A stretch of DNA of 64,000 bases from an uncultured Actinomycetes bacterium (lineage in GTDB: Bacteria; Actinomycetota; Coriobacteriia; Anaerosomatales; CAVRZR01). The stretch covers positions 617,354-681,353 of the forward strand of contig CAWEJW010000001.1 in assembly GCA_963809535.1 (NCBI GenBank), given 5' to 3'. This document shows, piece after piece, positions 17,226 to 40,982 of this stretch; the stretch's first letter is position 1; each line of letters opens with the position of its first letter. Both the position numbers and the translations under genes were made by a program. The notes beneath the pieces were generated by a model. That model ran no database searches, had not been told where the DNA came from, and saw only the letters and a program-made list of their open reading frames with translations.

Positions 17226-17250
17226 ACGACAAGCGGAGGCAACCTTCGGA

Positions 17251-17287
17251 GGAGCGGTCCCGCAGGGGCCGCTCCTCTCTTCGTGCT
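17251..17287 (+). terminator. intrinsic terminator after cspA
   Basis: GGAGCGGTCCC-GCAG-GGGCCGCTCC hairpin followed by the T-rich stretch TCTCTTCGTGCTT. Confidence 0.6.
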
Positions 17288-24960: not shown

Positions 24961-27900
24961 ATGGGGAAGGCTCGACACGCGCTGAGTCGCTGGCAGCTTG
25001 CACCCGCGGACGCTTCGGCCGTACACAGGCTCGCATCAGCGGTCGGTCTGTCCGAGATCACGGCGCGAGTCCTCGTCGGCCGCGGGATGACCGATCCCGA
25101 GACTGCCGAGCGCTTCCTTTCGCCCGATCTTGAGCGTGACTGGCTCGACCCGTCCCTGATCCCGGGCATGTCCGAGGCTGCCGACCGGGTTGCCCAAGCC
25201 GCCGGCTCGCACGAACGCGTCGTGGTCTTCGGCGACTTCGACCTGGACGGGATCGCGTCGGCTGCGCTTACCGCTCTCGGCCTGCGGGCCATGGGTGCGG
25301 ACGTCCGGGCAATCGTGCCGCACCGATTCCGGGAGGGGTACGGCCTATCACCGGCTGCGCTTACGCGCGTGTTCGCCGCCCATCCCGACCTCGTCGTCAC
25401 CGTCGATTGCGGAATCTCGGCCAGAGCCGAGGTCGCGGTGCTGGCAGCGCGGGGAGTCGCATGCGTCGTCACCGACCATCACGAACCCGGCCGGGACCTG
25501 CCTCCAGACATTCCGGTTGCGAACCCCAAACTCGACCCCGCTTGTCCATCGCACGCCCTTGCGGGCGCGGGCGTCGCTCTGAAGCTCGTGCAGGCGGTCG
25601 GCGAGCGCCTCGGCTTCCCGGACGTGTGGCGTGACCTTGTGGACCTCGCCACCCTGGGGACGGTCGCGGACATCGTCCCCCTCACGGGCGAGAACCGCGC
25701 GCTCGTCTCGGCCGGCCTTCGAGCGATGAGCGCCGCGCCGCGGCTCGGCATCGCAGCTCTCGCCTCCGCGGCCGGCATCTCACTCGAGTCACTCGATGCC
25801 GACAACATCGCGTTCGCGCTGGCGCCCCGCCTCAACGCGCCGGGGCGCATGGGCGATCCCGACGACGCCCTTCAGCTGCTCCTCACTGACGATTCGGTCC
25901 TCGCCGAGCAACTCGCGCTTTCCCTGGACGAGCAGAACCGCGCGCGCCAGACCAGCGAGCAGGACCTGACCGAGGCGGCGCTCGCCCAAGCGGAGAGGGT
26001 CTACGCAGGTGAGCGGGCGCTCGTGCTGGCCGGGGAAGGCTGGCACGAGGGCGTGAAGGGCATCGTTGCGTCCCGCGTCGCCGCGGAGTACGGGGTCCCG
26101 ACCCTGCTCTTCACCATCGAGGACGGTGAGGCCCGAGGCTCTGGGCGGACGGCGGGCTCCGTCGACCTCTTCCGCGCGCTGTCGGACGCGAGTTCGTGCC
26201 TCACGCGCTATGGAGGTCATGCGGCAGCCGTGGGATGCGCGCTTCCCCAGGGATCGCTCGACCAGTTCCGGCGCGACTTGCTGGAGGTGCTCGACGCGCT
26301 CCCAGCAGAGGAGCTGGCCGTCGAGTTGCGCTACGACGCCGACATCGCTCTGGAGGACGTGGGTCTGGAGCTCGCGGCCGAGCTCGAACGGTTGGCGCCA
26401 TACGGTTCGGGAAACCCCAAACCGATCCTCGCCACCCGGTCGGTCTTCATGAATGGGCGGCAGCGAGTGGGTCGGACCGGCAGTCACCTGCGCTTCATGG
26501 CGTTCGATGGCGGAGCGTCCGTGCCGGCGATCGCCTTCAGATGTCGAGACATCGAAGAAGTCGTCGCCAAGGACGGTCCCATGGACATCGCGTTCGAGAT
26601 CGCGGCCGACGAATGGCGCGGTCGCCGACGCGTCCAGCTCCTGGTGCGCGACATGAAGGACTCGTCGGTCGCGGGCGGTGTCGAGGAGCCCCTCACCTCG
26701 ATCGGCATACTCATCGAGGACCTCTTCGAGCGCGCCGACGAGATCATCGCCCGTGAGGAATACGCCGGTATCGGCGACGCCGAGTCCTTCCACACGAAGC
26801 TGGCTGGCGTCACCTTCGAAGGGCGACAGGACGTTCTGGCCCGGCTGGCGCTGGGTACCCCTTTGCGTCTGGAGCGCCAGCCCTCGAATGAGCACGACAC
26901 GAACGCGATCGCTCTCTTCGATCCATTCGGGGACCAGGTAGGCTTCTTCAACCGAAGACTCTCGGCAGCGCTCGCGCCGGTCATCGACTCCGGAACCACC
27001 TACGACGTTGAAGTCACGGACGTGACCGGGGGGGACGAAGGCCGCAGCCTCGGCGTGAACGTCTTGGTGAGCCAGCGGGGAGCGAGCCAGGCAGCCGAGG
27101 CCTTCGCCGAGCTACGGGCACAGCGGCGGGCCAAACTCGCGGCCATGCCGGCGTCAGAGTTGGATGCAGAGCTCACGCGCCTCTTCCTCGGCGACAGGCG
27201 GCTCCACGCGGCACAAGCGCGGGCGCTCGCGCATCTTGCGCAAGGTGCGAACACGCTGCTCGTCATGGCAACGGGCCGCGGCAAGTCCGTTGTCTTCCAC
27301 CTCCACGCTGCGCGCTTGGCGCTTCGCGACGCTCGCGCGTCCGTGTTCGTGTACCCGCTTAGGGCGCTCGTATCGGATCAGGCCTTCCACCTCGAGAACA
27401 CGTTCGCCGAAGCGGGATTGGCGGTGCGCACGCTCACAGGGGAGACTTCTCCCGGGGCGCGTGACGAGACGTTCGCGGACCTGACCGAGGGCTCGCTCGA
27501 CGTCGTTCTCACGACACCCGAGTTCCTCGACCACCATGCCGCTCGCTTCGCCGATGCTGCCCGCGTCGGCTTCGTTGTCGTCGATGAAGCCCACCACGTC
27601 GGCATGGCCAGAGCCGGACATCGGCCGGCGTACGCCAGACTCGACCGCGCGCTCGATGCCCTGGGCAACCCTCTCGTGCTTGCGGCGAGCGCCACCGCGG
27701 GGGATGAGACTGCTCGGGCGATACGGTCGGTTTTGGGCATTGACAAGGTCGTCGCGGACCCAACCGTGCGCGACAACCTTCGAATCGAGGACAAGCGAGA
27801 CCACGCCGACAAGGACACGTACATCTGCTCGCTGGCGGCGAGCGGCGAGAAGATGATCGTCTACGTGAACTCGCGTGAGCAGTCAGTGCGCCTCGCGCGC

Positions 27901-28608
27901 ATGTTGCGAAAGCGGGTACCCGGGGTCGCCGCGCGCACGGCCTTCTACAACGGCGGGTTGTCGCGTGAGGCGCGCGCCGCCATCGAGCACGCGTTCCGCA
28001 CCGGCGAGGTCTCGGCTGTCGTCGCCACAAGCGCGTTCGGGGAGGGAGTCAACATCCCCGACATTCGACACGTCGTGCACTTCCATCTGCCCTTTGGGGA
28101 AGTCGAGTTCAACCAGATGTCCGGTCGGGCAGGTCGCGACGGGGCCTCCGCGTCCGTGCACCTTCTCTTCGGGAAGAAGGATGCGCGCATCAATGAGGCC
28201 ATCCTCTCGGCCCTGGCACCTGGGCGAGAGGACCTGGCTGCGCTCTACCTCGTGCTACGCGACGAACAAGCGGCCTCGGGCGGGAGTTTCGAGGTCACGA
28301 ATGCCGAACTCGCCGAGCGGGCGCATCGCCGTCGCAAGCAGTTCGCGCTCGACGAGCGCGGCGTCTCTTCGGCCCTCGGGATCCTCCGCGAGTTGGGGCT
28401 GGTGGACGGGGAGGGGCACGGGTCCTATCGGCGACTCACCCTCCTGCCAGCTCCCGCCGAGAAGCTCGATCTGTCCGACTCAGTGCGCTACGCCGAGGGA
28501 CTCGATGAGATCGCCGAGTTCGGAGAGTTCAAACAGTGGGTGTTCTCGGCTGAACCGGCGTTGTTGCTCGAGCGGTTCAACCGTCCTATCCTGCCAACAC
28601 AGCTCTGA
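24961..28608 (+). CDS. recJ: RecJ exonuclease fused to a HIRAN domain and a RecQ-like DEAH helicase (1215 aa)
   Basis: N-terminus has the DHH family motifs (FGDFDLDG, DHH in VVTDHHEP, DHHA1 region). The middle (about 26788-27075) is HIRAN-like: LAGVTFEGRQD...L.RQPSNEHD.NAI.LF. The C-terminus has helicase motifs I (ATGRGKS), II (VVDEAHHV) and VI (QMSGRAGRDG). Confidence 0.85.
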   Translation: MGKARHALSRWQLAPADASAVHRLASAVGLSEITARVLVGRGMTDPETAERFLSPDLERDWLDPSLIPGMSEAADRVAQAAGSHERVVVFGDFDLDGIASAALTALGLRAMGADVRAIVPHRFREGYGLSPAALTRVFAAHPDLVVTVDCGISARAEVAVLAARGVACVVTDHHEPGRDLPPDIPVANPKLDPACPSHALAGAGVALKLVQAVGERLGFPDVWRDLVDLATLGTVADIVPLTGENRALVSAGLRAMSAAPRLGIAALASAAGISLESLDADNIAFALAPRLNAPGRMGDPDDALQLLLTDDSVLAEQLALSLDEQNRARQTSEQDLTEAALAQAERVYAGERALVLAGEGWHEGVKGIVASRVAAEYGVPTLLFTIEDGEARGSGRTAGSVDLFRALSDASSCLTRYGGHAAAVGCALPQGSLDQFRRDLLEVLDALPAEELAVELRYDADIALEDVGLELAAELERLAPYGSGNPKPILATRSVFMNGRQRVGRTGSHLRFMAFDGGASVPAIAFRCRDIEEVVAKDGPMDIAFEIAADEWRGRRRVQLLVRDMKDSSVAGGVEEPLTSIGILIEDLFERADEIIAREEYAGIGDAESFHTKLAGVTFEGRQDVLARLALGTPLRLERQPSNEHDTNAIALFDPFGDQVGFFNRRLSAALAPVIDSGTTYDVEVTDVTGGDEGRSLGVNVLVSQRGASQAAEAFAELRAQRRAKLAAMPASELDAELTRLFLGDRRLHAAQARALAHLAQGANTLLVMATGRGKSVVFHLHAARLALRDARASVFVYPLRALVSDQAFHLENTFAEAGLAVRTLTGETSPGARDETFADLTEGSLDVVLTTPEFLDHHAARFADAARVGFVVVDEAHHVGMARAGHRPAYARLDRALDALGNPLVLAASATAGDETARAIRSVLGIDKVVADPTVRDNLRIEDKRDHADKDTYICSLAASGEKMIVYVNSREQSVRLARMLRKRVPGVAARTAFYNGGLSREARAAIEHAFRTGEVSAVVATSAFGEGVNIPDIRHVVHFHLPFGEVEFNQMSGRAGRDGASASVHLLFGKKDARINEAILSALAPGREDLAALYLVLRDEQAASGGSFEVTNAELAERAHRRRKQFALDERGVSSALGILRELGLVDGEGHGSYRRLTLLPAPAEKLDLSDSVRYAEGLDEIAEFGEFKQWVFSAEPALLLERFNRPILPTQL

Positions 28609-31615: not shown

Positions 31616-31825
31616 CCGACGTAGCGGCGAACCGCGGGCAACGGGGTTCGCCTCCCGAAGGTTGAGCGGGGGAACCAGATCGCTCGGGGGAGCAGTAAGG
31701 TTCCCGAACCCTGCCAAGCCACGGTTGGGTCTCTCGGTCTTGGGGCCGGCATCCTGTCACGGATGGGAGGTGCTGATAGCGGGGAAGTGACAGCAGATGA
31801 TCTTGCGATCAAGGAGAAGAAGACA
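31616..31825 (+). promoter_or_regulatory. ~200-nt structured 5' leader of the hexahaem cytochrome gene (class unknown)
   Basis: Stems are GGCGAACC(31626-33)/GGTTCGCC(31645-52), GAGCG/CGCTC and GGGAACC/GGTTCCC (mutually nested or pseudoknotted), and CTGTCAC(31754-60)/GTGACAG(31786-92) just before AAGGAG. Confidence 0.3.
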
Positions 31826-33307
31826 ATGAAGAAGGTTCTTATCGTTGTGGCGCTTGCAGTGGCGTTGACCTTTGCGATAACCGTCGTTGCATTCGCCGAT
31901 CACTCGCCGTCGTTCTACATCCAGTGGAACGAAGAGGGCGGCTTTGAAGGTGCGAACGCGTTCGTCACGAGCCCGCACGCCGGGTACGTCGAGGGCACAC
32001 AGAAGTGCGGCGTGTGCCACGCCGTCCACCGTGCAGCGGTTCAAGGTCTGGGTTGGGAGCCAGGCGGTCAGCTCTATCCTGCCGAGATCGGCGGAGAGAA
32101 CAGGGCCGCGCGGCTGCAGTACAGCGCACCGTTCTTGGGCGAAACACAGATGCTGCTGCAGACTCCCGTCTCGGGAAATTGTGACTACTGCCACATCACG
32201 ACCTCGATCGGCGCGATCCAGATCTATGCAGGTAAGGTCAAGTATCGCCTCGAGGCCAACGACGCTAATGGTGGCTCGAACTGGGAAGGTGGGTTCGCCC
32301 ACAACAACGCATGCACGGCGTGCCACGCGGTGCATGGTGCGTTCGCCAACCCGTTCGTCGCTGCTCCGACCGCAGCCGACAACGTCGTGTTCCAGGGCCC
32401 CTTGGCCGCCAAGGTCGTGAAGGGTTACGCCAAGAACAAGAGCACGACATGGCAGCGCGAGATCTACCTTGCCGGCACGAACTACGAGTCGAGCCTGTTC
32501 CCCGGCGTCCAGCCGGTCGTATCCTCAGCGGTCGACCCGCTGAACACGCCGCTCTTCGCGTCGAAGGCTGACGCGCTGGCGGGCACGAACGCTCGGGTCG
32601 GTGCTGATGTTGCCGACGCGCAGGTCAGCGCGCACTGCACGTTCTGCCACGAGAACTACGGCTACGCTGCAGAGGCCATGAACAACAGGGAGTTCTTCGG
32701 CAAGACGGTCGCCGAGGTTGCAGCGATCACCGGCACGAACAACCAACTGGAGTCCTACAAGCAGGGCGCGGGCCTCTTCCAGGGTCAGTGGAACATCAGG
32801 CTGGTTGCTGACGGCCCGCAGATCAGCGCACGCAACGCCTACAGCACGACGCCTACCGGCGGTACTGCTCCGTGGCTTGGCCCGGGCTTTGATGGGCACG
32901 TCGCCGTCAAGAACCACCCGATGAAGAGGGCCGTCACCACTGGCTGGTCCTCGGCTGGTGGCGCCGCTATCGCCCAGGTCGCATTCAAGGGCTCGGATAC
33001 GTGCCGTTCCTGTCACGACGCAGGTGTCGAGGGCGCTGGTGGAGTCATCATCCAGTCGTTCCCGCACTTCACGCCTGGCTACTTCAAGTTCCTGATTTCC
33101 GCGGACAATCTGGGCGCGGAGATGATGAACATCAACGCGATCCTCAAGGCGAACCCCAGGGCAATGACCCAGGGGGTTCTCGACACGGTCTGGGCAACGC
33201 TGGACGACCCGGCTGTCCAGGAAGCTGCTGAGTGCACGTCTGACGGTGCCTGCCTGAAGTGCCACATCAACGCTGACAAGAGCGCTGGTATTGGCCTTAC
33301 GTTCTAG
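31826..33307 (+). CDS. secreted hexahaem c-type cytochrome (493 aa)
   Basis: AAGGAG sits 9 nt upstream. Sec signal MKKVLIVVALAVALTFAITVVAFA/DH. Six CxxCH motifs: CGVCH, CDYCH, CTACH, CTFCH, CRSCH, CLKCH. Confidence 0.85.
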   Translation: MKKVLIVVALAVALTFAITVVAFADHSPSFYIQWNEEGGFEGANAFVTSPHAGYVEGTQKCGVCHAVHRAAVQGLGWEPGGQLYPAEIGGENRAARLQYSAPFLGETQMLLQTPVSGNCDYCHITTSIGAIQIYAGKVKYRLEANDANGGSNWEGGFAHNNACTACHAVHGAFANPFVAAPTAADNVVFQGPLAAKVVKGYAKNKSTTWQREIYLAGTNYESSLFPGVQPVVSSAVDPLNTPLFASKADALAGTNARVGADVADAQVSAHCTFCHENYGYAAEAMNNREFFGKTVAEVAAITGTNNQLESYKQGAGLFQGQWNIRLVADGPQISARNAYSTTPTGGTAPWLGPGFDGHVAVKNHPMKRAVTTGWSSAGGAAIAQVAFKGSDTCRSCHDAGVEGAGGVIIQSFPHFTPGYFKFLISADNLGAEMMNINAILKANPRAMTQGVLDTVWATLDDPAVQEAAECTSDGACLKCHINADKSAGIGLTF

Positions 33308-33346
33308 GCTTGACACTACAGACTGCTACTGACGCAGTCGAAGACA

Positions 33347-33373
33347 GGGTGGCCCTCCTTCGGGGGGGCCACC
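33347..33373 (+). terminator. hairpin after the hexahaem gene (partial terminator or stabiliser)
   Basis: GGGTGGCCC-loop-GGGCCACC followed by TTGCGTCTGTGTG. Confidence 0.5.
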
Positions 33374-33439
33374 TTGCGTCTGTGTGCGGCGCATGGGTCC
33401 TCCCATGTCGCGCTGGGTACCGTGATAGGATTCTTGAGG

Positions 33440-34444
33440 ATGACTTCCGGAATGGTGCCGAGGTCGATGGAACCGCAGGACGCAAAGCCAATGTCACGCA
33501 GACGGCGGGGAATCATCCTGGGCGTCGCCGGGGCTGTTCTGGTGTTGCTCGTTCTAGGGGCGGCCGCCTCGTCCCTTCCGTCCGGCTGCTCTTCTGTCTG
33601 TCACCGCGCCCAAGCCAAGACCCTCGCTTCGAGCGATCACAGCAATGTGTCCTGCTACCGTTGCCACCTGGCGCGCGGCGCCTGGAGCTACCCCGGCTTC
33701 ATTGGATCGATCCTGTTTCGCATGAATACTCGTGCGCTCACAGGCTCGGGCTACCACACTGCGGCCGTTCAAACTTCTCGGAGCGCGTGCATCCAGTGTC
33801 ATGAGGGGACATTCGAGCGGACGAGCCAATCCGGCGGGATCCGCATCAAGCACTCGAGCTGCGCACCCGGCCCCACGTGCGACCCATGCCATGCGGCCGT
33901 CGCTCACGGCTCGGCAGTGCGCTGGGACGGCACGTACTCGATGGATGACTGCGTTGCGTGCCACAGGGCGCAGACGGCTCCCACGGCGTGCGACACGTGC
34001 CATACCCAGAAGGCGCGGGCCGCTCGCACGCGCGGGGCGTGGCAGGTCACCCACGGCCCGAACTGGGAGAAGACGCACGGCCTGGGAGATCTGGATACCT
34101 GCAGCACCTGTCACGGTGAGGGGTTCTGCGAGAGGTGCCACAAGGCCCCTGTGCCCCATCCTGAGGACTGGGGCGGCACCCACGGGCAGTACGCGATCGA
34201 GGACCGAGCTTCGTGTGAGACCTGCCACTCCTCCAGCGCCTGGTGCGCCTCCTGCCATGGGACGCAGATGCCTCACCCGAGCGGATTCCTGCAAGAACAC
34301 AGCTCGATCGCCAGCGGCCTGGTCGATCCGGAGTGCACACACTGTCACGACGAGAGCGACTGCGCCACCTGCCACACCTACCACGTGCATCCGGGCGGTG
34401 CCTCTGGTGTCCCCGTGCTCCCAACCGCTACCGATGCCCGATGA
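33440..34444 (+). CDS. membrane-anchored multihaem c-type cytochrome (11 CxxCH + 1 CX3CH), NapC/NirT-like topology
   Basis: An N-terminal RRRR-TM helix (GIILGVAGAVLVLLVLGAAA) is followed at once by CSSVCH. Paired motifs such as CSTCHGEGFCERCH, CETCHSSSAWCASCH and CTHCHDESDCATCH follow. Start ambiguous, 33440-33491. Confidence 0.85.
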   Translation: MTSGMVPRSMEPQDAKPMSRRRRGIILGVAGAVLVLLVLGAAASSLPSGCSSVCHRAQAKTLASSDHSNVSCYRCHLARGAWSYPGFIGSILFRMNTRALTGSGYHTAAVQTSRSACIQCHEGTFERTSQSGGIRIKHSSCAPGPTCDPCHAAVAHGSAVRWDGTYSMDDCVACHRAQTAPTACDTCHTQKARAARTRGAWQVTHGPNWEKTHGLGDLDTCSTCHGEGFCERCHKAPVPHPEDWGGTHGQYAIEDRASCETCHSSSAWCASCHGTQMPHPSGFLQEHSSIASGLVDPECTHCHDESDCATCHTYHVHPGGASGVPVLPTATDAR

Positions 34445-35730
34445 CCGCCCTAGGGCCTGCATCCTCACTCCGGTTATTCGGTCTCACAGTGGGAGGCCTG
34501 GACTTCAATGGTGCCTACAATTCCTTCCTGAAGGCCCTGCGCGAGCCATCGGCGGATCCGACGTTGACGCTGCTCTTTGTTGCGGCTGCGGCGCTACTCG
34601 TCCTGCTCATCGCGTTGGCAGTCGCCATGGTGGCGACGCCGTCTCGCAAGCGGGTCGTGAAGGTCCGCCGATACCGCGGGTCGCCCGAGGAGATCGCGGC
34701 TGCCCGTGCCGCGGTTGCTGCGCGAGCCGCTTCGGCGGCCGATGAAGGCGACCGCGAGGAGAGCCCGGCGAAGCCCGAAAAGGGAGGACCTCGACCGTTC
34801 TGGTCCAGGCCTACGTTCTTCATCGTCGTTGGCGTCGTGATCCTGGCACTGGCCGCCTATGGTGCCACGTCCACCAACGCCTACTGCGCCCGCACGTGTC
34901 ACGGCGGCACGCCCGCGGTGCGTTCGGCGACCAAGGTCGGACATGCCCCGTGCACCTCGTGTCATGAGGACAACGCGATCACCGGGGTCTTCGACAACAC
35001 CGTGGCTCGCGCCGCGATGCTGGCGGGCCAGGCCGCAGGCCGCAGTCCAGATACCCCGAATGTCGCCGCCGAATCGGCGGCTTGCCTGCACTGTCACGAA
35101 GCGGTGAAGACGGGCATCGTCGAGTCGTCGTCCGGGGTCAAGATGTCCCACGCCGAACCTCTGAAAGCCGGGCAGCCCTGCACCAGTTGCCACCCGGACA
35201 CAGGTCACGTGAGTGCGGGATACACCATGGGCATGCCTCCGTGCCTTCCGTGCCACGATGGCAAGACGGCGCCGATCACGTGCAGTCTGTGCCATCGAGG
35301 GGACCCCATGAGTCCAGTCGTGGCCGCTGCCTCAAACGAGGCGTCGGGCGGAGTGAGCTACCCGGCGGTCCGGGCGGCAAACCATGAATGCGGGGGCTGC
35401 CACGATCAAGAGCAGACGTGCGATCCCTGTCACGGCATCCGGATGCCCCATAGCCAGACGTTCATCGAGGGCGGCCATGCGAGATACGCCGCGTGGAACA
35501 ATAAGCAGACCTACTGCTCGCGCTGCCACCAACTTTCCACCTGTGCGGGGAAGTGCCACACGTCGTTCAACGGGCCGACGGGGCACAGCGCTGATTGGGA
35601 GGTCATGCACCAGGACTCTCCATGGGATTCGGGGTGCCCCTGCCACAGCGCGAGAAGCCCGCGTGCCGGCCCGCTGTGCTACCGGTGTCACGATCCGAAG
35701 ACGAAAGAGCTGCTCCCCCTGAGACCCTGA
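34441..35730 (+). CDS. membrane-anchored multihaem c-type cytochrome, paralog of the preceding gene (9 CxxCH + 2 CX3CH + 1 degenerate CPCH)
   Basis: ATGA overlap with the upstream stop. Two TM helices, the second followed at once by CARTCH. Collinear with the upstream paralog (MPPCLPCHDGKTAPITCSLCH versus MDDCVACHRAQTAPTACDTCH). Confidence 0.85.
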   Translation: MTALGPASSLRLFGLTVGGLDFNGAYNSFLKALREPSADPTLTLLFVAAAALLVLLIALAVAMVATPSRKRVVKVRRYRGSPEEIAAARAAVAARAASAADEGDREESPAKPEKGGPRPFWSRPTFFIVVGVVILALAAYGATSTNAYCARTCHGGTPAVRSATKVGHAPCTSCHEDNAITGVFDNTVARAAMLAGQAAGRSPDTPNVAAESAACLHCHEAVKTGIVESSSGVKMSHAEPLKAGQPCTSCHPDTGHVSAGYTMGMPPCLPCHDGKTAPITCSLCHRGDPMSPVVAAASNEASGGVSYPAVRAANHECGGCHDQEQTCDPCHGIRMPHSQTFIEGGHARYAAWNNKQTYCSRCHQLSTCAGKCHTSFNGPTGHSADWEVMHQDSPWDSGCPCHSARSPRAGPLCYRCHDPKTKELLPLRP

Positions 35731-36010: not shown

Positions 36011-37099
36011 TCATTTGCTTTCGGGGATACGCAGGATCTGGATCCGGTTGTTCGTCGTGTCCGCTACGGCAAACCAGTCGCGTTCCTTGTCATAAGCGAT
36101 GCCCGTTGGGTTGTTGAACAGGCCGTCTGTCGCGCCGTAGTCGCCGTACATGGCCGACGTCTGGTCGTGCTCCTTTGCCACTTTGCCGGTTTTGGCATCC
36201 AGCACGATGATCTTGAACTTGAACGCGTCGACAAGCACGATCCTGCCCTTGGCATCCATCGTCATCCCTGTGGGCATCTCGAAGGGATTCTTCGGGTCGG
36301 GTGTGCGCCGAATGTCGACTGTCGAGGAATCCTCGCGATTGGGAGCCGTGCCGGATATCCAGAGCAGGCGGCCGTCTTCTGAGTACGCCTTCACGCGTCG
36401 GTTCTGAGTGTCGGAGACATAGAGGGTGCCATCCGGACCGAGAAGGATCCCGTGCACCACGTCGAACTGCTCCTTGTCGGTCCCGCGGGTGCCGCCAAGC
36501 TGCATCAAGATCTGGTCGTCAGGCGTGAACACCGCGATGCCCTTGGTACTGCCGACGGCGATCTTGCCGTCACGAACGTCGACGACATTCGGCAGCTCCA
36601 CCCGCCATTTGGTCACGAACGTCCCGTCTGGACGGAACTCAAGAACCTGCCCGCCGAAGTCGGCGGTCCATAGATTGCCGTCCTCGTCCACCGAGATCCC
36701 CTCGAGTGAAACGATGCCCTTGGGTTCGATGACCCGCTTGACCGTGCCATTGGGATTGAACCCGACGATGTGGGAGTGTCCAGAGATCGCCCAGATCGTG
36801 CCATCGGGGCCAATGGCGACGTCGGTGGGTGCTTCGAGTTGCTGGTCAGCTTGGGTGCCCCACCCGTAGAGCGACCTGACCCACGTGACTCCGGATGGCA
36901 GCTCGGCCTTCGTCGGAGCTGCTGAGGGACGGGTCAATCTGAGCACGCCGTACGCCACGACGGCGAGAAGCAGCACGAGTACCCCAAGGATAACGGCGAG
37001 CACTCGGCGCTGTCGTCGATTGTCGACGTACTCGACGACGGTTTCGGCGTATTCCCCAGGCTCTTGGATTCCGGGCGTTGTCTCGGGCGTCTCGCTCAT
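36011..37099 (-). CDS. membrane-anchored NHL-repeat beta-propeller protein
   Basis: GGAGGA SD and an N-terminal TM helix (VLAVILGVLVLLLAVVAYGVL). Repeated blades follow: P.GIA..DG.I.V.D..N.RV, e.g. GPDGTLYVSDTQNRRVKAY and FNNPTGIAYDKERDWFAVADTTNNRIQIL. Confidence 0.8.
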   Translation of the reverse strand: MSETPETTPGIQEPGEYAETVVEYVDNRRQRRVLAVILGVLVLLLAVVAYGVLRLTRPSAAPTKAELPSGVTWVRSLYGWGTQADQQLEAPTDVAIGPDGTIWAISGHSHIVGFNPNGTVKRVIEPKGIVSLEGISVDEDGNLWTADFGGQVLEFRPDGTFVTKWRVELPNVVDVRDGKIAVGSTKGIAVFTPDDQILMQLGGTRGTDKEQFDVVHGILLGPDGTLYVSDTQNRRVKAYSEDGRLLWISGTAPNREDSSTVDIRRTPDPKNPFEMPTGMTMDAKGRIVLVDAFKFKIIVLDAKTGKVAKEHDQTSAMYGDYGATDGLFNNPTGIAYDKERDWFAVADTTNNRIQILRIPESK

Positions 37100-37130: not shown

Positions 37131-37907
37131 CTACTTGTCCGTGGCTTCGGCCTTCTTGAGGCCTTCTGTGGCGGAGGCGTCGTCAGGCAGGAACTGCAGC
37201 GCGTACTTGAAATCCTTGGCGGCTGAAGTCTTGTCGCCGGCACCCAACTCGGCCCATCCCCGCAATACGATGATATCGGCCGCCTGCTCGTCCAGCGCCA
37301 GTGCCGCATTGAAGGATTGGATCGCTTCCTTGTACTTCTTCAGGTTCTGCTGTGCAGTGCCTCGCAGCACGAGCAGCCTGATGGTCGTACTGTTGTTCTG
37401 CGCCTCGTCGGGGACACGAATCCCCTTCTGGAGGTTCGCGTTGAACTCCTCTTTCAGCAACGCCTCGTCCTTCAAGAGGTATGCCTGGGAGCGCGCCAAA
37501 GCCTCCGCGTTCCTTCCTTCGAGGATGAGGAGGTGGAGGTCGACGTTGTTGACCTCACGGATGGTCTTGTCGGTGACTTGCGTGCGAGCGCGCACCAGGG
37601 CTTCCTGCGCGCCTTCCTTGTCGCCAACGGCGTACAACGCCTCGGCGTAGTCAGCCCACGCCTGCCCATTGCCAGGGTTCGCTTTGACAGCCGACTCGTT
37701 GGCGGCTCGCACCGACTCAGCCCAGGTACGCGGCGTGGAGCGGAAGAACACCCCCGTCAACAGAGCGTACGCAAGCACGGCCACGATCAGGCAGCCGACG
37801 CCGATGGACGCCCAGAGCAGTATGCGGGATACCCGATCTGGCGAAGACTCGAGAGGTTCTTCCACGTACTCAGGCGTCTCAGAGAATGGCGAGCCACTCA
37901 TTTGCAC
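37131..37907 (-). CDS. membrane-anchored TPR-repeat protein
   Basis: One TM helix (ILLWASIGVGCLIVAVLAYALL), then TPR-like helical repeats (AWADYAEALYAVGDKEGAQEAL; YKEAIQSFNAALALDEQ; AAKDFKYALQFLPDD). Upstream of and co-oriented with the NHL gene. Start is GTG 37907 or ATG 37901. Confidence 0.75.
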   Translation of the reverse strand: MQMSGSPFSETPEYVEEPLESSPDRVSRILLWASIGVGCLIVAVLAYALLTGVFFRSTPRTWAESVRAANESAVKANPGNGQAWADYAEALYAVGDKEGAQEALVRARTQVTDKTIREVNNVDLHLLILEGRNAEALARSQAYLLKDEALLKEEFNANLQKGIRVPDEAQNNSTTIRLLVLRGTAQQNLKKYKEAIQSFNAALALDEQAADIIVLRGWAELGAGDKTSAAKDFKYALQFLPDDASATEGLKKAEATDK

Positions 37908-38264: not shown

Positions 38265-40982
38265 GTGAGTCGCATGGGACCGGCGCTATTTGGACGCCAC
38301 TGGGTCGTCGCGGTCTTTCTTCTAGCTGCGGCGGTCTTGGCGTTGGCGCCTTTCGCTGTCGCGGGCGTGTCAGATGTGCCAGCTGACCTCCACGCGGCTG
38401 CGGGCGCGAAGTCGCCCATCGTGGTGAGTCTGTCTTGGGCCGCCCCATCTGGGTCCTCGGTTTCCGGATACCGCGTGTACGTGGCGGAACACGAAGACGG
38501 CCCGTATGATCTGGCGACATCAACGCCCGGCTACTCGTTTGACTACGTTGAAGGGGAATCCGGGTGGCCCTACTACTTCCTAGTCACTTCGGTTGACGCC
38601 GACGGCGTGGAGTCCGCCGCAGCCCAGGCTGGTCCAGTCGCGTCCAAGTGGATCGAGTCGCCACATGGCGCCTTCTCGGAAACCAGCCACAACTGCGAGC
38701 ATTGTCATTCGGTTCACGACGCGGACGGCAATCTTCTGCTCGATATTCTGAGGACGGATGAGGCGTCCGACACCCCAGACCAGTCCAGGGCCTGTTTCCG
38801 ATGTCATGGAGGGCAGTCAGCCGATTCGGCGAACGTCGAGGACGGCTCTCGCGACTCCTTCGCGCTTGCCAGCGGGCATTCCGTCGATGCTTCAGCAAAT
38901 GCCGGCTTGATCAGCGCGTGCTCGAGCTGCCATTGGGTTCACGGCGACTCCGAGGTTCGCCCGATGATCCCAGCATTGACGGTCAATGGACTCTCGGTAG
39001 CATCCAGCGGGCCCGAGCTGTGTTACGCGTGCCACGACGCAAAGAACACTTGGTACGACGGCAACTACCCCTCGCCATCGTCCCCTCCGCGAGACGCCTC
39101 AGGGTACCCGGTGAGCGGAACCTGGATGGGCCCGGCGACCTACAAGGGTGGGTCCAACGCGCACCGGCTCATTCCTGAGACGACGCAGACTGCGGGGTTT
39201 GTGGCGCCCGTCCGTCGTGCGCAGGGAGACTGCCTGTACTGCCACGCGGCCCACAGGGGCTCGAACAAGTACGACTCCCTCTTGACGACCTTCACCCCGT
39301 CGACCACGTCATCGCTGGCCTCGGATCAGAGGCACGGCACCTACGCGGCGCTATGTCTCGACTGTCACGGTGGATCCGTGCCGAGCGGCTTCGAGACGGC
39401 GCCGACGGATATCGCGCAGTTCGTCACCACGTCGACAGCAGACGCCACGTCGGGCCATCGAATCAAGACAGCCGGCGGGACCCTCCCCGTAGGGGCGCCG
39501 CTGCCCTGCTATGAGTGTCACAACCCCCACGGATCGACTCGCGGGAATGCGAGCATGCTCTCCGATGTCGTGGGCGGGAGTCTTGAGACGAGTAGCGACG
39601 CCGGAGTGCGGCATTTCTGCTTCAGCTGCCATACGACCTCCGACACGGTTCGCGGGTGGGACAGCGATGAGTCGATCTTCTCTCCGGTCGGAGAAACCGA
39701 CTCCGTTGTCGGGATTGCGCGGACCGGAGGCGTGCTTCGGCTGCCGCCTCTGGCGGCTCACTCCCAGGCGAGTGCCACTTCGTGCTATGCGTGTCATGGC
39801 TCCGACTATCGCACCGGCGGCAGCAATGTCCACAACCCGGGTCTTGGCGGCTACGACCCCGAGGCGCACACCTCGACGGTAACCACCGCGACGATCACGA
39901 TCCTCGGGACGCCTTACACGGACCGCGCATGCGCAGACTGCCATGTTCTCGAGCTGGGCCCGCTCCACATGCCTCCAGCCGACTGCGCAGACTGCCACGA
40001 CACGCTCGTGCCGATCCCCGGCGGCTGGGACAAGGGCTGCGTCCAGGCAGGTTGTCATCCGGCAGGCTCACCGCTCGAGATCCATGTCGACATCGACGCC
40101 TCACACATGCGCTCGGCGGAGCCTACGGCCGCCGACACCTGCTTCGTCTCCGAGTGCCACACGGGCGGTGGTAGCCTCGCGGACATCCACGCGAACAAGC
40201 AGAGCTGCGACACGTGCCACAGCTTGGACAGAGCGCCGACCGGCAACTGCGAAGCGAGCGGCTGCCATGATTTGGGCAAACCACACGAAGATCTGACGAT
40301 CGCCCACACGTCGAGCGGTGGCACCGACTTCGTCTCGGTCGGGATCCAGGACAGGCGCCACGGCTACTACGACGGCGTGACCGCAAACTGCTCGGATTGC
40401 CACATCACAAGCCTGATCCCGCTGCACTCGGGCGATTGTCAGACGTGCCACACGAGCTCCGTGAGCGAAGCCGTCAAGGACGCTATCGCGAACGACGACA
40501 CGAACTGCACGTCGTGCCACCCGGGCCACCACAGCGGAGATATCGACGCTCACTACAGCGTGGTCAGCGACGGCTGCCACAAGTGCCACAACGCGGATCC
40601 CTATGTGGACTCGTCCAACGTCACCTGCACGGGATGCCACACGCCACCCAACAGGGAGACGTTCGTCAACCCTGAGCGCATCACTGGGACCATCCGCCTT
40701 GTCTTTGGCGACTGCGATGTGAGTGGCAGCGCTCCGCCTGAGCATTCATATGCCGTGTGGACGGTGCGGAGTGGCGGGGCAGACGGGCCGGTTGTGGCTT
40801 CTGGCGGGGGCTTCGACGGCAGCGGGTGGGATGGCATCGATGATGTCATGGTCTTCGCACAGCCACAGCCATATCACGTCTACATCGAGTGGTACGACAG
40901 GGAGTCGGACAACTCGGGGGAGAGCTTCTTCTCTCAGGTAGACGTGACCACGTCAGGCCAGCTCGCAACGTTGCACTACTAG
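38265..40982 (+). CDS. large exported multihaem c-type cytochrome with N-terminal FN3-like domain (17 CxxCH + 3 CX4CH; 905 aa)
   Basis: Signal/anchor HWVVAVFLLAAAVLALAPFAVAG. FN3-like segment (SLSWAAPSGSSVSGYRVYV...YYFLVTSVDADGVES). Then 17 CxxCH motifs plus CVQAGCH, CFVSECH and CEASGCH, and a haem-free beta-rich C-terminal ~100 aa. Confidence 0.85.
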   Translation: MSRMGPALFGRHWVVAVFLLAAAVLALAPFAVAGVSDVPADLHAAAGAKSPIVVSLSWAAPSGSSVSGYRVYVAEHEDGPYDLATSTPGYSFDYVEGESGWPYYFLVTSVDADGVESAAAQAGPVASKWIESPHGAFSETSHNCEHCHSVHDADGNLLLDILRTDEASDTPDQSRACFRCHGGQSADSANVEDGSRDSFALASGHSVDASANAGLISACSSCHWVHGDSEVRPMIPALTVNGLSVASSGPELCYACHDAKNTWYDGNYPSPSSPPRDASGYPVSGTWMGPATYKGGSNAHRLIPETTQTAGFVAPVRRAQGDCLYCHAAHRGSNKYDSLLTTFTPSTTSSLASDQRHGTYAALCLDCHGGSVPSGFETAPTDIAQFVTTSTADATSGHRIKTAGGTLPVGAPLPCYECHNPHGSTRGNASMLSDVVGGSLETSSDAGVRHFCFSCHTTSDTVRGWDSDESIFSPVGETDSVVGIARTGGVLRLPPLAAHSQASATSCYACHGSDYRTGGSNVHNPGLGGYDPEAHTSTVTTATITILGTPYTDRACADCHVLELGPLHMPPADCADCHDTLVPIPGGWDKGCVQAGCHPAGSPLEIHVDIDASHMRSAEPTAADTCFVSECHTGGGSLADIHANKQSCDTCHSLDRAPTGNCEASGCHDLGKPHEDLTIAHTSSGGTDFVSVGIQDRRHGYYDGVTANCSDCHITSLIPLHSGDCQTCHTSSVSEAVKDAIANDDTNCTSCHPGHHSGDIDAHYSVVSDGCHKCHNADPYVDSSNVTCTGCHTPPNRETFVNPERITGTIRLVFGDCDVSGSAPPEHSYAVWTVRSGGADGPVVASGGGFDGSGWDGIDDVMVFAQPQPYHVYIEWYDRESDNSGESFFSQVDVTTSGQLATLHY

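Follow-up and report, generated by a model that had tools for sequence, protein, structure and literature searches.

A secreted hexahaem cytochrome of the OmcS/CwcA superfamily in an actinobacterial cytochrome island, a probable carrier of electrons across the cell wall

The window considered here is a stretch of 64,000 nucleotides from an uncultured Actinomycetes bacterium (contig CAWEJW010000001.1 of assembly GCA_963809535.1), and it holds an island of multihaem c-type cytochrome genes (Table 1). The first gene of the island codes for a secreted cytochrome with six haem-binding CxxCH motifs, called the hexahaem below. Judged by profile comparison, this protein is a member of a previously unnamed actinobacterial branch of the superfamily that includes OmcS of Geobacter and CwcA of Thermincola. 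The gene neighbourhoods place it in a conserved five-gene module for extracellular electron transfer (EET), made up of a TPR protein, an NHL-repeat protein, the hexahaem and two membrane cytochromes. A strong 3′ hairpin of its own is nearly confined, within the module, to the hexahaem genes. The lineage probably uses the hexahaem to carry electrons across the cell wall.

Table 1. Hexahaem gene, its signals and the other genes of the cytochrome island (positions of the window)
Feature	Position	Strand	Remarks
Shine-Dalgarno sequence AAGGAG	31811..31816	+	9 nt before the hexahaem ATG; read from the sequence
Hexahaem c-type cytochrome gene	31826..33307 (including stop)	+	493 residues; OmcS/CwcA superfamily
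Sec signal peptide of the hexahaem (residues 1-24)	31826..31897	+	Cleavage AFA/DH; sequence reading
GC-rich hairpin, 14-bp perfect stem, UUCG loop	33345..33376	+	Between the hexahaem gene and cyt317
Membrane-anchored multihaem cytochrome cyt317	33491..34444	+	317 residues; 11-12 haems; ImdcA/Tfer_0071-like
Membrane-anchored cytochrome cyt430	34441..35730	+	About 430 residues; two N-terminal transmembrane helices; 9-11 haems; NapC/NirT-like
NHL-repeat beta-propeller with N-terminal membrane anchor	36011..37099	-	Pfam NHL, 66 bits
TPR protein with N-terminal membrane anchor, partner of the NHL protein	37131..37907	-	Pfam TPR families
905-residue cytochrome	38265..40982	+	17 CxxCH and 3 variant motifs; candidate outer/terminal cytochrome

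The preliminary description of this gene had reported a secreted protein with six haems and a hairpin of its own behind the gene, and that observation stands as a whole. The cleavable signal peptide (MKKVLIVVALAVALTFAITVVAFA, cut before DH) is present as proposed, and the two alanines of its AxA site (A22 and A24) are invariant in the alignment of 93 homologues to which all conservation figures for the family refer. Exactly six CxxCH motifs occur, with the first cysteine at residues 61, 119, 163, 271, 393 and 476, and a scan of the 493-residue sequence found no variant haem motifs. The haem density, about one per 78 mature residues, is indeed much lower than in the adjoining cytochromes (11–12 haems in 317 residues, 9–11 in 430 and 17–20 in 905). 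The claimed homology of the first haem module (residues 48–73) to a module of the 905-residue protein, described then as a 20-haem protein, is recovered at residues 131–156 of the latter (hhalign 95%, E 3e-8). The Shine-Dalgarno sequence and its spacing are also as described, although it is not uniquely the strongest of the island, since a GGAGG stands 8 nt before the start of the NHL gene. Pfam and NCBIfam return generic near-threshold matches only (paired CxxCH domain, cytochrome c7, MtrC/MtrF domain II/IV). The last of these (PF22113) is marginal, a single stretch of 32.1 bits against a cut-off of 30 in a protein with six haems rather than ten, which sets it apart from MtrC/MtrF-like proteins.

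Relatives of the hexahaem could be collected in large numbers. A large-database search gave 187, nearly all of them from Coriobacteriia, Anaerosomatales and other Actinomycetota metagenome-assembled genomes (MAGs). An exhaustive profile search gave 745 cluster representatives (50% identity clusters, chiefly from Coriobacteriia and Anaerosomatales MAGs) at E <= 0.001, among them 159 at E <= 1e-30, and the closest relative in a genome scan is 52% identical to the window protein. All six CxxCH motifs are invariant, as are the distal (non-motif) histidines 51, 68, 159, 170 and 414, and histidine 364 is kept in 92 of the 93 members; therefore, all six haems can be bis-His ligated. The family comprises a short form of about 340 residues and a long form of about 470–520 residues with insertions, which account for its low haem density; the window protein is of the long form. 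The proteins close with a GVGxT[F/Y] tail (residues 481–493, positions 33266–33304 in the window), in which Gly488 and the terminal Phe/Tyr are each present in 92 members. This tail is absent from OmcS and CwcA and may serve for docking, the TPR protein being one conceivable partner.

The likeness to OmcS and to the Thermincola hexahaem, guessed in the preliminary description from size and haem count, proves in profile–profile comparison to reflect real distant homology. The OmcS sequence was checked against PDB 6EF8, and the OmcS family comprised 4061 matches, with 44 members aligned. The profile of the window family matches the OmcS profile (hhalign 98.2%, E 5e-14) over 80 columns, with the haem 5–6 module in register. 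A greedier realignment runs end to end, pairing the signal peptides and each of the haem motifs 1–6 with the same-numbered OmcS motif, and off-register alternatives reach E 1e-5 or worse. Of five sub-regions compared alone, four matched best to their counterpart haem or haems in OmcS; for the fifth, a composite 25–385 segment, the best match covers the haem 4 region only. Among the 720 possible pairings of the six haem blocks, the identity order comes first, with a summed score of 160 (mean 133 ± 9.5). Three controls point to true, if distant, homology and not to a matching of motifs. The OmcS profile compared with the three other multihaem families of the island gave E 4e-4, 8e-4 and 1e-7, the reversed OmcS alignment gave E 0.16, and OmcS columns shuffled outside the motifs, with CxxCH kept, gave E 2e-4 to 1e-2 in eight trials. 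Since the profile match is significant but phmmer and hmmsearch do not reach OmcS (see below), the hexahaem counts as a superfamily relative of OmcS, not a strict family member.

CwcA (Tfer_0075/TherJR_1122), which is 18% identical to OmcS, was modelled by Faustino et al. 2021 (PMC7911101) as a polymer of the OmcS type that spans the peptidoglycan, and in a 2025 review the polymer is still only a model (PMC12203936). Among the proposed Thermincola EET cytochromes, ImdcA and PdcA were characterised biochemically (PMC7911101). CwcA aligns end to end with the window-family profile (hhalign 96.4%, E 1.4e-9) and with the OmcS profile (97.9%, E 4.8e-13), and the signal peptides of OmcS and CwcA align with that of the window protein. 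The Thermincola ferriacetica locus, located via the ImdcA sequence from the supplement of PMC7911101, has the order ImdcA, 407-residue NapC-like cytochrome, 508-residue 17-haem protein, TPR, NHL, CwcA. According to hhalign, the window NHL protein corresponds to Tfer_0074 (99.1%), the TPR protein to Tfer_0073 (98.9%), cyt317 to Tfer_0071 and ImdcA (99.8% and 99.2%), cyt430 to Tfer_0071 (99.5%) and the 905-residue cytochrome to Tfer_0072 (97.3%). BLASTP also relates cyt317 to ImdcA (23% identity over 336 residues, E 8e-12). Since every gene of the island has a Thermincola counterpart, the island can be regarded as the actinobacterial version of the Thermincola EET cluster. The adjoining cyt317 and cyt430 (33491–35730) are paralogues (hhalign E 2e-44); cyt430 has a weak match to Pfam Cytochrom_NNT, and the start codon of cyt317 is uncertain (33491 is used here, 33440 and 33452 are also possible).

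The module is recognizable in a synteny survey of 78 related loci; some of these are truncated at contig ends, and the counts are therefore minima. In 54 loci an NHL gene immediately precedes the hexahaem gene, with both on one strand; in 66 an NHL gene occurs anywhere in the flanks, and in 60 it has a TPR gene beside it. Both cyt317 and cyt430 are present in 51 loci each, and tandem hexahaem paralogues occur in 7. The usual order across these loci is TPR, NHL, hexahaem, cyt317, cyt430. The full module is found in Coriobacteriaceae bacterium EMTCatB1 (BDLO01000001.1, 140096–157184), whose genome was reconstructed from a thermophilic electromethanogenic biocathode; this origin would tie the module to electrode-associated growth.

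The NHL partner is met outside this family as well. In Geobacter, omcS is immediately preceded by a gene for 315 residues (L080 8809–9756). This gene and the 332-residue genes upstream of two Anaeromyxobacter-like OmcS homologues (L082, L083 4697–5695) match the window NHL profile at 96.6–97.3% (E 5e-10 to 2e-11), the Geobacter protein being barely over the Pfam NHL threshold (20.7 against 20 bits). With these matches, the pairing of an NHL protein with an OmcS-type hexahaem spans four phyla. A YncE-type propeller downstream of Geobacter omcS was considered as a further NHL relative and rejected, for it shows no relation to the window NHL protein in profile comparison.

Within 44 nt, the hairpin behind the hexahaem gene has a folding energy of −31 kcal/mol (z = −4.4 relative to segments of the window), and its sequence has no second copy elsewhere in the 64,000 nucleotides. 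No U-run follows it, which is why a canonical terminator scan missed it. The chance of so strong a hairpin in the 183-nt gap is about 0.04 when judged from this window alone; the strong evidence comes from conservation across the family, not from single-window statistics. In the related loci, the 130 nt on the 3′ side of every module gene were searched for their most stable fold of 44 nt, with −27 kcal/mol as the threshold. Hairpins were found in 24 of 30 gaps (80%) between hexahaem and cyt317 and in 7 of 8 gaps (88%) between tandem hexahaem genes, in comparison with 5% after NHL, 2% after TPR, 0% after cyt317 and 3% after cyt430. Relative to its own locus, the hairpin has z < −2 at 59 of 84 hexahaem genes. 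The sequences vary among loci and only position and structure are kept, unlike a repeat element. A GC hairpin without a U-tract is also present 3′ of omcS, and a canonical terminator 3′ of cwcA.

The hairpin behind the hexahaem gene of the window probably either terminates part of the transcripts or stabilises the mRNA from its 3′ side. In either case the hexahaem transcript would be ended or stabilised apart from the downstream genes, a signature typical of bulk structural subunits. The earlier proposal that the hexahaem is expressed above its downstream genes thus has strong comparative support, these hairpins being specific to hexahaem genes across the family. A second near-perfect GC hairpin of the window, at 17233–17276 on the forward strand (−30.7 kcal/mol), is presumably another terminator.

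A possible contact between subunits is offered by His68 (in CGVCHAVH), which aligns with OmcS His16 and is invariant in the alignment. In the OmcS structure, His16 is a ligand of haem 5 in the neighbouring subunit. The presence of His68 alone does not prove ligation in trans, and this residue is best called a candidate cross-subunit ligand. From the family alignment, AlphaFold built a confident model for the window protein, with a predicted local distance difference test (pLDDT) of 82 and a predicted template modelling score (pTM) of 0.82, and a weaker one for a short-form member (pLDDT 70). In both models the haem 1–2 region (residues 51–120, or 43–64 in the short form) is much less confident than the C-terminal half; in OmcS it is through this region that a subunit touches its neighbour. 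The low-confidence haem 1 region could become ordered only in an assembly, or could equally reflect the haems missing from the models.

The explanation that best fits these data is an electron wire through the Gram-positive wall. The two membrane cytochromes would take electrons from the membrane and deliver them to the hexahaem, which would be made in excess because the hairpin would end or stabilise most transcripts after it. The hexahaem would then carry electrons through the thick wall to larger outer cytochromes, such as the 905-residue protein, or directly to Fe(III) minerals. Its molecules would most probably stack head to tail like those of OmcS, with His68 completing the coordination of haem 5 in the next subunit, and the membrane-anchored NHL/TPR pair would serve as an assembly or anchoring platform. 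For the explanation in its entirety (wall-crossing wire, His68 bridge and NHL/TPR platform) the chances appear evenly balanced, and for the head-to-tail haem wire with its His68 bridge they are even at best. The interpretation given in the preliminary description is supported in part: its OmcS/CwcA likeness and its expression argument hold, and the role of terminal component is less likely than that of a wall-crossing middle component. CwcA has been placed in the peptidoglycan, and larger multihaem proteins such as the 905-residue one are better candidates for the terminal position.

Several observations weigh against such a wire. Searches of PDB sequences by phmmer and hmmsearch, with the single sequence and with the family profile, reached neither OmcS nor, in any meaningful match, another solved structure; the best matches are photosynthetic reaction-centre cytochromes at E > 0.01, which is motif-level similarity. 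In the block comparison with OmcS, single-haem blocks discriminate poorly alone, the 6×6 matrix is not diagonal-dominant row by row, and discrimination comes only from the summed assignment and the two-haem windows. OmcS His335 (in CHRAH) is without a counterpart in the window protein, which has an invariant Pro413-His414 instead; His414 may replace it, and the ligand wiring may therefore differ. Foldseek comparison of both AlphaFold models with the PDB returned no cytochrome at all, so that a shared fold with OmcS is left without structural confirmation. The structural comparison with OmcS-type subunits that had been suggested was judged uninformative, because even generic multihaem folds were not retrieved. 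Some lineages have the hexahaem module, tail included, as the C-terminal domain of proteins of 700–1574 residues (P0410, P0416, P0421, P0422, P0428–P0430, P0435), some with 10–15 further haems and others with a non-haem N-terminal region of about 900 residues, an architecture hardly expected of a simple repeating subunit. Inversion of the TPR-NHL pair is confined to this window and its closest relatives; here the pair lies downstream of the cytochrome operon, diverging from the gene of the 905-residue protein. The hairpin, moreover, has no U-tract.

The same family and the same pathway could also function without a polymer. The hexahaem would then be abundant in the wall zone as single molecules or small oligomers, bound or chaperoned by the NHL and TPR proteins, and would pass electrons on by diffusing or by brief contacts, much as a periplasmic shuttle does. 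The six conserved distal histidines suffice for in-chain ligation of all haems, a high expression as deduced from the hairpin suits a shuttle too, and the tight linkage of NHL, TPR and hexahaem fits a stable heterocomplex equally; the fused multidomain versions and the failure of Foldseek to find similarity to OmcS point the same way. However, OmcS has the same six motif and six non-motif histidines and yet uses one of them in trans, and the equivalent residue is the invariant His68. The region best conserved with OmcS is the haem 5–6 module, which in OmcS receives the neighbouring subunit, and CwcA expressed alone in E. coli was insoluble (PMC7911101). A shuttle of this kind is the main rival of the wire and a serious possibility, though the less probable of the two.

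Alternatively, the protein could be a terminal metal or electrode reductase on the cell surface, a monomer like MtrC, OmcA or OcwA. It is secreted and without a membrane anchor, a high expression would suit a surface reductase, and the marginal PF22113 match could be read in this sense. This match is generic, however, because OmcS homologues bear the same weak Pfam matches. Both the island and the Thermincola cluster encode far larger multihaem proteins, which would make more suitable terminal reductases, all haems of the hexahaem are apparently bis-His ligated, and there is no extra domain for mineral or flavin binding; such a role is improbable. Still further from the evidence is a multihaem enzyme or redox partner outside EET, for example in the reduction of nitrogen or sulfur oxyanions. 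NapC/NirT-like proteins such as the neighbours of the hexahaem also serve nitrite, trimethylamine N-oxide and dimethyl sulfoxide reductase systems, but the module contains no gene for a catalytic partner. With six conserved distal histidines, no open or Lys/Tyr-ligated haem site was found, and the Thermincola cluster to which the module is homologous encodes proposed EET cytochromes, among them the biochemically characterised ImdcA and PdcA (PMC7911101). On account of the six conserved distal histidines and of the lack of a partner enzyme gene in the vicinity, a catalytic multihaem enzyme was rejected, and any function outside EET is very improbable.

Outside the island, the flank at 28.6–31.5 kb carries a RelA/SpoT-like open reading frame (from reading its translation only) and a gene of the metallo-beta-lactamase fold, and the other flank, at 41.1–42.4 kb, carries hisS. 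With housekeeping genes on both sides, the island may be an inserted block. Further upstream, positions 24961–28608 code for an unusual single-chain nuclease-helicase of 1215 residues, which combines RecJ (DHH, DHHA1, RecJ OB), HIRAN and DEAD/Helicase_C domains.

Cultured relatives exist in Anaerosomatales, the order of several of the related MAGs. Parvivirga hydrogeniphila of this order is an obligate Fe(III) reducer that forms thin appendages only with ferrihydrite, and its genome reportedly has in common with that of Anaerosoma tenue a cluster of three genes, for an ‘MtrA homologue’ and for two multihaem proteins that oxidise quinol (PMC9686372). In Dethiobacter, NHL and TPR genes were described next to multihaem clusters (PMC10376724). 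The Parvivirga cluster (MCL4078710-12) may plausibly correspond to the hexahaem, cyt317 and cyt430. A broader proposal would make the NHL(+TPR)/OmcS-like pair an ancient wire-assembly unit of four groups (Actinomycetota, Bacillota, and the relatives of Geobacter and of Anaeromyxobacter), with the actinobacterial protein forming true OmcS-type filaments, perhaps the Parvivirga appendages, and its tail docking the TPR protein. In this full extent the proposal is rather unlikely.

Structures have established cytochrome nanowires for two archaea and, among bacteria, for Geobacter and Desulfuromonas relatives, and OmcS-like wiring of a Gram-positive wall has so far rested on one homology model, that of CwcA. 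An actinobacterial family with OmcS/CwcA ancestry, a candidate cross-subunit histidine, NHL/TPR partners and the expression signature of a bulk subunit gives this idea a much broader comparative base. A filament becomes plausible and directly testable, with Anaerosomatales iron reducers as cultured relatives, and actinobacterial OmcS-type filaments, if real, would be the first cytochrome nanowire from a Gram-positive bacterium. The NHL propeller can likewise be put forward as a conserved and little-studied partner of OmcS-type cytochromes in four phyla.

Among the known systems, OmcE, OmcZ and the archaeal tetrahaem filament cytochromes are extracellular and polymerise into a continuous haem chain, but they have other haem numbers and belong to unrelated families; neither the PDB sequence search nor Foldseek found similarity of the window protein to them. 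MtrC, OmcA and OcwA are secreted multihaem EET cytochromes as well, and the weak MtrC/MtrF match that the hexahaem shares with them is generic for paired-CxxCH proteins. The MtrC type is a decahaem with a staggered cross; the window protein has six haems, and neither its sequence nor its fold matches that type significantly.

OmcS (Geobacter sulfurreducens GSU2504; PDB 6EF8/6NEF) is, like the window protein, secreted and has six CxxCH motifs in the same order, with CxxCHxxH at haem 1 and a low haem density (one per 68 residues, against one per 78). In both cases the gene has an NHL-like propeller gene as a neighbour, tandem paralogues (omcS-omcT) and a 3′ hairpin of its own. Identity between the two proteins is only about 20%. 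Insertions add about 85 residues to the hexahaem, its N-terminus is extended by 25 residues, and it ends in the GVGxT[F/Y] tail that OmcS does not have. The accessory genes are osc genes in Geobacter and TPR and ImdcA-like cytochrome genes here. The host, presumably monoderm from the taxonomy of the related MAGs, would have no outer membrane to cross, unlike Geobacter.

The comparison with CwcA is closer in setting. Both are secreted hexahaem proteins of Gram-positive bacteria with a 3′ hairpin, and the loci have in common the TPR and NHL genes, the hexahaem, ImdcA-like and NapC-like cytochromes and a large multihaem protein. CwcA is shorter (353 residues), stands nearer to OmcS, keeping CHRAH, and has another C-terminal tail. 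It comes from Bacillota and the window protein from a different phylum, and the gene order also differs, the TPR-NHL pair being inverted and downstream in the window.

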